A stretch of DNA of 64,000 bases from Candidatus Aminicenantes bacterium (lineage in GTDB: Bacteria; Acidobacteriota; Aminicenantia; Aminicenantales; CALLJL01). Positions 7,796-11,797 of the stretch are shown one piece after another (position 1 is the first letter of the stretch; each line of letters starts with the position of its first letter). The stretch is from contig JBBIRF010000006.1 in NCBI GenBank assembly GCA_037441905.1, forward strand, positions 18,675 through 82,674. The letters run 5' to 3'. A model generated the notes under the pieces. It had not been told where the DNA came from and ran no database searches. It saw nothing but the letters and a program-made list of their open reading frames with translations. The position numbers and the translations under genes are program-made.

Positions 7796-9277
<1,482 letters not shown>

Positions 9278-9293
9278 ATAGCGAGGGAGAAAA

Positions 9294-9722
9294 ATGAAAA
9301 AAAGCTGGCGTTGTTTCATCTGTCAGGACATTCATGTCGGCAATAAACCACCCGAAATTTGCCCGACTTGCGGCGCCAGAAACGCCTACGTGGAAGTATC
9401 CACGACCGAAGCCGTAGCCATTGCCCAAGCTTTTCCCCGGCAAGTAAACCAGGAAACTTTCTTGCGGACTGTCGAGGCGCTCGCCGCCGCGAACGAATTC
9501 CGCTTGAACCCCGACCGAGATAAAGTCAGCCTTTTACTCGAAGGTATTTTTAACAATGAAAAAAACCACGGGTACAAGTTCTGTCCGTGCCGCCTCCAGA
9601 CCAAAGATTTCCTCGAAGACATGAAGCTTATCTGTCCCTGCAATTTTTTAGTCCATGAAACCTACCGGGGTCGGCCTGACGGGGAATGCTGGTGCGGCCT
9701 GTTTCAAAGGAGGCAAGCATGA
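9294..9722 (+). CDS. Rubredoxin-like domain fused to ferredoxin-thioredoxin reductase catalytic subunit
   Basis: N-terminal CFIC-x12-CPTC; C-terminal CPCR, CPC and CWCGLF motifs of the FTR catalytic fold. Confidence 0.88.
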   Translation: MKKSWRCFICQDIHVGNKPPEICPTCGARNAYVEVSTTEAVAIAQAFPRQVNQETFLRTVEALAAANEFRLNPDRDKVSLLLEGIFNNEKNHGYKFCPCRLQTKDFLEDMKLICPCNFLVHETYRGRPDGECWCGLFQRRQA

Positions 9723-10015
9723 AAAAAATTATCATGTTTTATGCTCGGGAGTGTCCGCATTGTCGCGTCATGCTGCCGGTGGTTGACCGTCTCGAAAAGG
9801 AAACTGGCATCACCTTTGAGCGGCTGGAGGTCTGGCATGACGAGAAAAACGCTGACTTGATGCGCTCCTGGCGGCACGTCCTCGCTCCAGCCTGCGGGGG
9901 ACAGTTAAGGACACCAACTTTCTTTGAACCAGAAAGCCAAGCGGTGCTTTGCGGCGAAGTCCCTTATGAAAAACTAAAAGATTGGGCGGAAAAGGCTCTC
10001 AGCCTTAAAGCTTAA
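9719..10015 (+). CDS. Thioredoxin/glutaredoxin-like protein
   Basis: Start moved to ATG 9719 (AGGAGG SD, ATGA overlap with the upstream stop); FYARECPHC active site, RTPTF cis-Pro loop. Confidence 0.88.
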   Translation: MKKIIMFYARECPHCRVMLPVVDRLEKETGITFERLEVWHDEKNADLMRSWRHVLAPACGGQLRTPTFFEPESQAVLCGEVPYEKLKDWAEKALSLKA

Positions 10016-10072: not shown

Positions 10073-11797
10073 TCAGCCGCCATCCTTTTGCTCCGCGAGA
10101 AACTGAAGAATTTCTAACTCATCAGCCGGAAACCAGACCAGGGAACAGTGATAACATTTATAAACGGGAAGAAGCAGCTGATAGTTAAACGGCTTAACCA
10201 TCATCTGCAACCCGCACTGCGGGCAGGAGCTAACGGGCTTGGCCAAAGCCTGCTTTTTTGCCAGGGAAAGCGATGCCATATTTTCCTTAATTTTCTTCGC
10301 TTTGGCCTGAAGCAGGAAAGAAAACCCGACTTCCCTCCTGGCCAAAATCTTATCCATTGCCTCGAGCGCCACCAATTTTCCCCGGCAGTAAGGGCAAACC
10401 TTGATTTTAACTCCCTCATAAAAGGTTTCGGTCAACTCCCGGCCACATTGAGGGCACTTGTCGACTCGCTGGGGGTCGATGGCTTGATGACGGAAAAGTC
10501 GGTTCAGAGCTGACCTGATGCTGGCGAACTCCCCAGCTCTTCCCTCCCGATTGTCCTTAATATTTTTTACCCTTGTCCCGGGCGAAAAACCAGGCTGGGC
10601 GAGGAGGGAAGATAAAGAATAAGGCCCACCCCACCCCCGGCCGCTTTTTACCAGCCAGATTTTCTCCTCCTGGCTGTCAACACCAGGCTGAAACCACCCC
10701 GCCTCCGTCGACCACTGAGGCTCCGGCGCGCCTATTTCTTCGCTCGCTCTGGCTTGCAGGCGGGCTTTTTCTCTCAGGGCCTCTCTTTCTCTAACTTCGG
10801 CTATCAATTCACCCACTGACTTTTGGGCCATCGCTGCCAGGATTCTCAACCTCGTGAGGACAGGAGGGTGAGTGTTAAATAACTTGCTCGGCAGGCTGTC
10901 GGTAATTTCCCGGGAATCCGGCGGAACTAAGAAAAGAGGGGTGTAAAGGCTAAAATCCCCAAGAAAAGAATTGGCGACATGAGCTTTGTAAATTATCCGG
11001 CCAAGGGCTAACGGGTCGCGACTGAATTCAACCGCCGTGGCGTCAGCCAGCAGTTCTCTCTGCCTGGTTACGAGCAGGCTCAGGAAACTCATCAAGCTCA
11101 AGCTCAGCCAACCGGCCAGAGACAACAGAGGATGAATCGTTCCTCTTTTTGACCGCGACCAGAGCACATCATCCGAGCCTTCTTCTGTTTCTCGCTCCAG
11201 GGAGCTCACCAGCCGTTCATAAAAACTCACCAGGCTACAAACCAGCGTCAGAAGGTGGGTATCGCCCCTGAGAATATGACTCATTTCGTGAGCTACCGCG
11301 GCTTGCAATTCATCCCGGCTGGCTTCAGCCAGCAGCCCTTCGGTTACGCTGATTATCGGCTGGTTACCAGGACCATTCAGAGAGAAAGAATTAATGTTCC
11401 GCGAGGGAACAATATAACCTTTAACTGCAGGCACCCCTGCGGCCAGCCTCATCTCCTCCAACACGTTCTGAAAAGTAAGATGATACCGGTCCTCAGGGGC
11501 GGGCGGATACGCCTTGAGCCGCTGCAGAATAAAATTGACTCCAGCTTTCTTTGCCTGCCTGAAATTAATAAAAGTGAGCAGGCCTGTTAAAACAAGCAGA
11601 AAAGTCAGATAAGGGAGAAAAACCGCGTTTTCCCAAAAATTGAACCCCGGGGAAAAAAGCCCGACCCCGAAGAGGACTGCCGCGGAAATTAAACCTGACG
11701 TGAGGAAATAGAAGAGGAAAACGAAGAAAAATAGCCCACCAGAAATTCTTTTTTGCCGTTCTTGCCACTCCCAAAAATCAGGTTGCCTGCACTTCAA
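10073..11797 (-). CDS. M48/HtpX-like zinc metalloprotease with two C-terminal zinc ribbons
   Basis: TM helices, NSFS, VTEGLL, HEMSH, RQRELLAD, THPP; then CPQC..CPYC and CPQC..CYHC; TTG start. Confidence 0.88.
   Translation of the reverse strand: MKCRQPDFWEWQERQKRISGGLFFFVFLFYFLTSGLISAAVLFGVGLFSPGFNFWENAVFLPYLTFLLVLTGLLTFINFRQAKKAGVNFILQRLKAYPPAPEDRYHLTFQNVLEEMRLAAGVPAVKGYIVPSRNINSFSLNGPGNQPIISVTEGLLAEASRDELQAAVAHEMSHILRGDTHLLTLVCSLVSFYERLVSSLERETEEGSDDVLWSRSKRGTIHPLLSLAGWLSLSLMSFLSLLVTRQRELLADATAVEFSRDPLALGRIIYKAHVANSFLGDFSLYTPLFLVPPDSREITDSLPSKLFNTHPPVLTRLRILAAMAQKSVGELIAEVREREALREKARLQARASEEIGAPEPQWSTEAGWFQPGVDSQEEKIWLVKSGRGWGGPYSLSSLLAQPGFSPGTRVKNIKDNREGRAGEFASIRSALNRLFRHQAIDPQRVDKCPQCGRELTETFYEGVKIKVCPYCRGKLVALEAMDKILARREVGFSFLLQAKAKKIKENMASLSLAKKQALAKPVSSCPQCGLQMMVKPFNYQLLLPVYKCYHCSLVWFPADELEILQFLAEQKDGG

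Follow-up and report, generated by a model that had tools for sequence, protein, structure and literature searches.

The window analysed here, a stretch of 64,000 nucleotides from a Candidatus Aminicenantes bacterium, carries two overlapping genes, the first of which encodes a rubredoxin (Rd) domain joined to a catalytic domain of the ferredoxin:thioredoxin reductase (FTR) type (hereafter Rd-FTR), and the second a thioredoxin-fold protein with four cysteines (the redoxin). The pair is real, conserved and uncharacterised, and its reductase is a member of the FTR superfamily that lies outside both plant FTR and the ferredoxin:disulfide reductase (FDR) of Methanosarcina. Most probably (we would put it at roughly 85%) Rd-FTR is a one-/two-electron transducer of the FTR family with a [4Fe-4S] cluster and a disulfide, in which the tethered rubredoxin would be the one-electron partner and the co-translated redoxin the dithiol partner, reached via C99-C12.

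The Rd-FTR gene occupies positions 9294-9722 of the forward strand and encodes 142 amino acids; its identification is based on profile, homologue and model evidence. A Shine-Dalgarno-like GAGGGAG, recognized from the sequence (9283-9289, forward strand), lies 4 nt 5' of the ATG. It is preceded on the same strand by the gene of a guaB-like IMP dehydrogenase (7814-9277, stop codon at 9275-9277; named from the translated sequence), and guaB is a conserved landmark 5' of the pair locus in the compared genomes of the order. Scans for promoters and terminators at the locus produced no more matches than shuffled sequence. The original prediction placed a rubredoxin-like site ahead of an FTR catalytic domain with CWC as its third motif, and both the Pfam positions and the motif agree with this. 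The predicted short rubredoxin domain of the rubrerythrin type (9306-9389, forward strand) corresponds to residues 5-32, which match Pfam RUBY_RBDX (PF21349, E 1e-8, above the cut-off), and contains C7-x2-C10-x12-C23-x2-C26. The FTR catalytic-type domain (9468-9707, forward strand; residues 59-138) matches FeThRed_B (PF02943, E 4e-14, 52.8 bits against a cut-off of 22) and has the layout CPC-x14-CPC-x15-CWC, i.e., C97-P-C99, C114-P-C116 and C132-W-C134. All ten cysteines and W133 are invariant among 121 aligned homologues, and CPC-x14-CPC-x13/15-CWC was found in 120/120 homologues. The six conserved cysteines of the catalytic domain suggest a [4Fe-4S] cluster with an adjacent redox-active disulfide, and C99 is the interchange thiol predicted from the model. 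The modelled structure (pLDDT 84) has the FTR fold, and in fold comparison the Rd domain resembles those of rubrerythrins (Z 5.2-5.6); it also carries the CxxC-x-D-x-H-x-G signature, common with the free rubredoxins and di-rubredoxins that adjoin unfused CWC FTRs.

The partner gene (9719-10015, forward strand) encodes 98 amino acids with C12, C15, C59 and C78 and invariant W39 and P66. Its ATG (9719-9721) overlaps the TGA of the Rd-FTR gene (9720-9722), and the junction (9706-9722, forward strand) comprises an internal Shine-Dalgarno sequence, AAAGGAGG, at 9706-9713 and the ATGA start/stop overlap at 9719-9722. Because AAAGGAGG is located 5 nt ahead of 9719, this position is a likelier start of the redoxin than the in-frame ATG at 9686. 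The four cysteines (C12-P-H-C15, C59 and C78) are all present in 120/120 homologues. The model of the redoxin (pLDDT 94) is a thioredoxin fold (Z 11.2, rmsd 1.6, 82 residues aligned to Trx y1), with C12-C15 at the start of helix 13-29 and the invariant P66, so that it has both the CxxC and the Pro loop of this fold. The predicted ATGA coupling to a CPHC thioredoxin-fold protein with two extra cysteines thus holds, given the overlap, the invariance of C59 and C78 and the modelled fold. Among Pfam families only weak matches of the thioredoxin type were obtained, and every NCBIfam score was far under the cut-off; no NCBIfam model exceeded its cut-off for Rd-FTR either. Canonical TrxA, glutaredoxin and NrdH were rejected as identities of the redoxin in view of these NCBIfam scores and of its site, which is CPHC and not of the WCGPC or CPYC type. 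The extra C59 and C78 are specific to this family; our guess is that they form a structural disulfide, and their absence from the listed interface residues of the complex model described below counts neither way. Convergent with the redoxin gene, an HtpX-like M48 peptidase with two C-terminal zinc ribbons is encoded on the reverse strand (10073-11797); it is also found near the pair in a related locus (L001).

The full-length fusion is present in 68/108 sampled genomes of the order to which the window belongs and in 0/93 genomes from elsewhere in the class; the FTR matches examined there were FDRs with a C-terminal rubredoxin. A second group of carriers belongs to an archaeal order (Thermoplasmatota among Atlas taxa), in which 49/81 genomes have the fusion. 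The redoxin directly follows the fusion in 41/41 bacterial loci, a few of which are duplicates, and adjoins it in 20/20 archaeal ones; the genes overlap or nearly abut, with a spacing of -8 to +35 nt in the loci measured. No redoxin was found in the 40 genomes of the order without the fusion. Such an arrangement is not due to chance, considering this conserved spacing, the numbers of homologues (394 for the fusion, 632 for the redoxin, the named ones being mostly from Aminicenantes) and the dN/dS values of ~0.05 for Rd-FTR and ~0.03 for the redoxin, obtained against a same-genus genome at dS near saturation; the pair is under purifying selection in this genome. The modelled Rd-FTR/redoxin complex scored 0.89, with the best control at 0.00, against a mark reached by 58/80 solved pairs and 2/110 mismatched pairs. 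The runs agreed in at least 96% of contacts, partner pLDDT was at least 92, and C99 of the FTR domain contacts C12 of the redoxin, with W133 at the interface, in the canonical FTR-Trx geometry. Since FTR-Trx complexes have already been solved, this result may mirror likeness to them, and the model is a matter of likeness and compatibility, not a proof of specificity. Taken with the adjacency and the absence of the redoxin from fusion-less genomes, it supports the dedicated partner that had been proposed for the reductase. Several loci deviate from the common arrangement. In one genome (G113:C31:7430-7567, locus L069) only a short part of the catalytic domain is left, between guaB and panC, and the redoxin was not found, an apparent decay of the pair; in another (L156, G273) the FTR gene and E2 are both frameshifted or split, by decay or assembly error. 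In L004 (3416-3877) and in L007-L009, a DUF6529/cytochrome c membrane protein and a signal-bearing DUF2769 protein are encoded between guaB and the fusion. These inserts are missing from the window, and DUF2769 recurs beside the archaeal redoxin.

Rd-FTR has the PF02943 profile, the three CxC motifs and the fold of the FTR superfamily and lacks the defining features of plant FTR and Methanosarcina FDR. Its catalytic domain is closest in fold to the glutaredoxin-FDR fusion of Desulfotalea psychrophila (7PWE; Z 9.3, rmsd 3.5, 88 residues aligned), followed by the FDR of Methanosarcina acetivorans (4TPU; Z 8.7, rmsd 2.6, 85 aligned) and by plant and cyanobacterial FTRs (1DJ7, 2PUK, 7BZK; Z 6.3-6.8), and the best PDB sequence matches are 4TPU (E 1.2e-13) and 7PWE (E 1.4e-11). 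In the D. psychrophila protein, as here, the reductase is physically tied to a redoxin, but there the N-terminal fusion partner is the redoxin itself and the motif is CYC, while in Rd-FTR the N-terminal partner is rubredoxin and the redoxin is encoded by a separate overlapping gene. The M. acetivorans enzyme shares with Rd-FTR the six-cysteine FTR domain, the first spacing of x14, a short rubredoxin in the same chain, the lack of an adjoining variable subunit (neither gene neighbour of the pair is FTRv) and action, predicted in the case of Rd-FTR, together with a non-canonical thioredoxin. Unlike Rd-FTR, it has the rubredoxin at the C-terminus (the Rd of Rd-FTR, N-terminal at 5-32 and of other subtype and origin, aligns to its residues 137-166), Tyr in the third motif (CYC; CFC in relatives) instead of Trp and a second spacer of 12 instead of 13-15; Rd-FTR, for its part, belongs to a separate clade, has its own four-Cys redoxin and is linked to lipoyl and oxygen-defence genes. 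Plant FTR is defined by a CHC third motif with a catalytic His and by x16/x8 spacing. With plant and cyanobacterial FTRs, Rd-FTR has in common the three CxC motifs and the predicted docking of the second Cys of the first motif on the nucleophile of thioredoxin, and it differs in the lack of His in the third motif, in the spacings, in the built-in rubredoxin and in the non-photosynthetic host.

The residue W133 occupies the position of His in plant FTR and of Tyr in FDR. These two are thought to act as proton donors, which Trp cannot do, so W133 cannot fill the role attributed to them. H121, which lies at the modelled interface and is invariant in this order (19/19), was considered as a clade-wide replacement for the lost His and rejected as such, because Gln is found there in 19/26 other CWC rows. 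The CWC motif itself, emphasized in the original prediction, is genuine; its contrast with the plant CHC alone was overstated, given the CYC of the 4TPU FDR and the wide variation of the middle residue among relatives. In the literature that we searched, to which the FTR classification of Balsera et al. 2013 did not belong, no description of an FTR with an N-terminal rubredoxin or a CWC motif, or of the Aminicenantes system, was found.

The reversed order of the same two Pfam domains, together with 4TPU as the best PDB sequence match for both parts, had suggested a circular permutation of the Methanosarcina-type FDR. The domain-architecture search and phylogeny, which the original prediction had set as a test, place the catalytic domain of Rd-FTR in a separate Trp clade (CPC-x14-CPC-x13-CWC), in which a profile search of representatives found fusions with one Rd, fusions with two and catalytic domains that stand alone; Nanoarchaeota are represented in it. 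Fused and stand-alone rows are mixed within this clade (support 99/94), and the branch of FDRs with a C-terminal rubredoxin (100/99) is separate from it, in a quick tree and an unrooted 42-row LG+G4 tree (66 rows left out) where 4TPU was represented by homologues of the same architecture. A single clade of all Rd-bearing rows was rejected (p-AU 6e-6, 88 columns), under a constraint that also shuts out the nested stand-alone rows. The rubredoxin is of another subtype as well: an HMM of the fused Rd gave a median of ~50 bits for free di-rubredoxins and split-locus Rds as against 23 (maximum 32) for the Rds of FDRs. Free Rd genes lie no more than 650 nt upstream of the unfused FTR in 43/52 metagenome loci, in 38 of them with the Asp/His signature, and intermediates were found in the form of an Rd gene with an FTR gene, an Rd-Rd gene with an FTR gene and an Rd-Rd-FTR fusion. 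On the grounds of the tree, the Rd HMM and these upstream genes we reject the permuted FDR, which appears very improbable. Since the fused Rd matches the free Rd genes located just 5' of unfused relatives, the simplest reading of these comparisons is that a stand-alone FTR of the Trp type became fused to the free rubredoxin gene lying upstream of it; this would have happened repeatedly (at least three label changes are forced by starred branches), converging on the domain content of FDR. The FTR domain fuses promiscuously, and Trx-FTR, Grx-FTR, Grx-FTR-Rd and a 306-aa Rd...FTR with CAC are found among the representatives (P0160, P0187, P0188, P0205, P0214, P0238). Two genomes of the same genus (G026 and G131; loci L065 and L066) lack the pair and encode elsewhere a canonical CYC FDR with a C-terminal Rd, a possible displacement of the pair by this FDR.

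The N-terminal knuckle might also be structural or a sensor, binding Zn, or Fe as an oxygen or redox switch, with the catalytic domain fed directly by ferredoxin. A CxxC-x12-CxxC site can bind Zn, weak zinc-ribbon matches were obtained, and there are unfused relatives in which one of the tandem Rd domains is devoid of its cysteines; the best matches of the knuckle are, however, the Fe domains of rubrerythrins, and we regard this explanation as unlikely. As 43/52 unfused loci retain the Rd gene next to the FTR and fusion happened more than once, we expect an electron-transfer partner, and an obligate one, considering also the signature in 38 of the 43 upstream genes.

The genomic contexts of the fused and unfused forms differ: the former adjoin lipoyl E1/E2 and lipoate-ligase genes (lipoate enzymes lie near the pair in the relatives' loci L005, L006 and L058), and the latter oxygen-defence genes. 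With a search cut of 1e-30, which misses degenerate E2 domains, E2 was found in 34/68 pair-bearing genomes of the order versus 1/40 pair-less ones; in 32 of the 34 E2-bearing genomes it is located within 5 kb downstream of the pair, as E1a-E1b-E2, and the order includes genomes with these genes directly after the redoxin. The archaeal operon consists of the fusion, the redoxin, LplB and LplA and is convergent on E1/E2; LplA adjoins the pair in 19/20 archaeal loci, and the FTR is present in 40/42 archaeal E2 genomes, one of the two exceptions having it frameshifted. The dependence of E2 on the pair is one-way: E2 almost never occurs without the pair, and half of the pair-bearing genomes are without E2. 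The link between E1/E2 and the pair may represent one inherited cassette, kin not being independent. Four archaeal genomes (G220, G215, G210 and G229; L157-L160), in which no CWC FTR, full E2 or E3-like match was found, have the four-Cys redoxin tail-to-tail with a gene of a 201-aa lipoyl-less degenerate E2 catalytic domain and two DUF2769-like genes. Here the link between redoxin and E2 outlasts the reductase.

The near-absence of E2 without the pair, the lack of an E3 gene within the E1/E2 clusters examined and the failure of all 80 archaeal genomes to pass the TIGR01350 cut-off would be in line with the pair replacing E3 in an E3-less 2-oxoacid dehydrogenase. Against this, the present genome (93.5% complete) encodes a full E3 (468 bits at a cut-off of 409, with the redox motif and the His-Glu dyad preserved) and lacks E1/E2, for which tblastn at 1e-4 gave no match either. 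E3 is above the cut-off in 63/67 pair-bearing and 37/40 pair-less genomes of the order, each of the 42 archaeal genomes with E2 encodes an E3-like flavoprotein (the two copies scanned exceed the NF004947 dihydrolipoyl dehydrogenase cut-off), and the E2s retain an E3-binding domain. As a general rule, the replacement of E3 is ruled out by the E3 encoded here without E1/E2 and by its presence in nearly all carriers, and we deem it improbable.

Among the neighbours of the unfused FTRs (52 loci) we found SOR (17), rubrerythrin-type proteins (14), YruB-type Grx (9), TrxR-like proteins (7) and SOD (6), and no NADH:rubredoxin-reductase-like (NROR-like) protein, FDP, NrdD, peroxiredoxin or TrxA. SOR or rubrerythrin occurs in 19/52 of these loci (15/35 sequence clusters), and small ORFs with a ferredoxin motif in 2/52, on the opposite strand. 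Twelve unfused loci contain this four-Cys redoxin, with SOD (6) or cupredoxin neighbours and never with SOR or rubrerythrin, which assigns the SOR link to a sister branch. Most of the TrxR-like neighbours are without the usual NADPH motif; in L181, L194, L209 and L213, GGSDS/A and YRK replace the NADPH-binding GGGxxA and HRR. The present genome has a GcvT/H/P cluster, E3, lipoate ligase, rubrerythrin, an FDP-like protein, an NADPH-type TrxB beside TrxA and an NROR-like flavoprotein beside a rubredoxin-bearing protein; no SOR match was obtained. It also encodes (G000:C11:27491-29566) a class III ribonucleotide reductase (NrdD) with vicinal cysteines (CCRL), which we take to be of the redoxin-dependent type and which is a candidate target of the pair if electrons flow forward.

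Gene context and redox potentials fit a net direction reverse to that of plant FTR, i.e., from a dithiol via the redoxin and FTR to rubredoxin, at least as well as the forward one, and we slightly favour this reverse flow, at somewhat less than even odds, over ferredoxin-driven forward reduction. According to it, the redoxin would be reduced by a cellular dithiol, namely dihydrolipoyl on E2 or on the H protein of glycine cleavage (formed upon oxidation of a 2-oxoacid or glycine, or from NADH via E3), or by a thioredoxin reductase; the reduced redoxin would reduce the FTR disulfide via C99-C12 exchange, and the FTR would pass single electrons to rubredoxin and on to rubrerythrin, a flavodiiron protein or superoxide reductase. 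The pair would be a thiol:rubredoxin oxidoreductase free of flavin that taps the lipoyl pool as a side route, without taking the place of E3. Rubredoxin potentials are ~0 mV or higher, far above those of disulfides and lipoamide (~-290 mV), so that electron transfer from thiol to rubredoxin is downhill and from rubredoxin to disulfide uphill. E1/E2 can yield dihydrolipoyl only. Reverse flow joins both gene contexts, because E1/E2, E3-lipoyl and TrxR are dithiol sources and SOR and rubrerythrin are rubredoxin-fed sinks. A functional analogy is provided by Mycobacterium tuberculosis, where reduced E2 lipoate, obtained from E1 or from NADH/E3, drives the thioredoxin-like AhpD in peroxide defence (E1/E3-DlaT-AhpD-AhpC, PMC12995895). 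As in the route proposed here, a small thiol adaptor diverts lipoyl electrons into defence against oxidants in the presence of E3; that system ends, however, in a peroxiredoxin, and the proposed one in an Fe-S/rubredoxin step, and no sequence relation is claimed.

Several facts speak against the reverse flow. To our knowledge, every characterised FTR or FDR runs forward, the rubredoxin-bearing FDR of M. acetivorans included. The present genome has neither E1/E2 nor an SOR match and already possesses the NROR-like flavoprotein; half of the pair-bearing genomes lack E2 and yet the pair is kept under purifying selection; the unfused loci with the four-Cys redoxin never carry SOR or rubrerythrin; the usual NADPH motif is missing from most of the TrxR-like neighbours; the E1/E2 link may go back to a single cassette; and rubredoxin shuttles electrons less well when tethered than when free. 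Forward flow, from reduced ferredoxin to rubredoxin, the cluster/disulfide, the redoxin and target disulfides (for example, those of a class III ribonucleotide reductase of the redoxin type, or lipoyl/E1-E2 thiols that have become oxidised, in repair or regulation), is the default by precedent and a real possibility, which we rank somewhat lower; the ferredoxin-dependent disulfide reductase of the original prediction corresponds to it. All biochemical precedent (PMC6262447, PMC9025218, PMC7278568) is in its favour, including the reduction of a non-canonical Trx by the M. acetivorans rubredoxin-bearing FDR (PMC6262447). So are the catalytic Cys set and docking geometry, which are the same as in FTR-Trx, the NrdD with vicinal cysteines, and the canonical FDR in the two pair-less genomes of the same genus, as if the two systems were interchangeable. 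Anaerobes are, moreover, rich in reduced ferredoxin. On the other hand, this genome already has its NADPH-type TrxB beside TrxA, ferredoxin genes are almost absent nearby, and unfused loci have no peroxiredoxin, NrdD or TrxA neighbour; a high-potential rubredoxin would be an uphill relay, canonical FDR is present in only 4/40 pair-less genomes of the order, and reduction of the lipoyl arm would oppose the E1/E2 flux. That the widespread Trp-type FTR clade as a whole is reversed in vivo, draining lipoyl and thioredoxin dithiols into rubredoxin-dependent reduction of O2, superoxide and peroxide in anaerobes, we propose tentatively, with less assurance than the reverse flow in the pair itself.

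What is new here is the origin of the architecture by fusion of adjacent genes, the finding that E2 depends on the pair but not the pair on E2, the reverse-flow model and the genome-level refutation of the E3-less premise. The FTR-fold enzymes known to us are all disulfide reductases driven by ferredoxin, and what rubredoxin does in FDR has, as far as we know, been postulated but not proven. The clade, in which Rd exists as a separate gene, in tandem or in fusion, offers natural constructs for studying the rubredoxin role and the direction of electrons, and Trp at the His/Tyr position makes it a test of the FTR mechanism. If the flow is forward, the pair represents a new subfamily of modest importance, whose four-Cys partner has no name. 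If it is reverse, it would fill the missing slot of rubredoxin reductase in the oxygen-defence clusters of small genomes, would account for the retention of the pair next to lipoyl dehydrogenase genes in anaerobes, and would give the FTR fold a new physiological role and lipoate-dependent complexes a new outlet.
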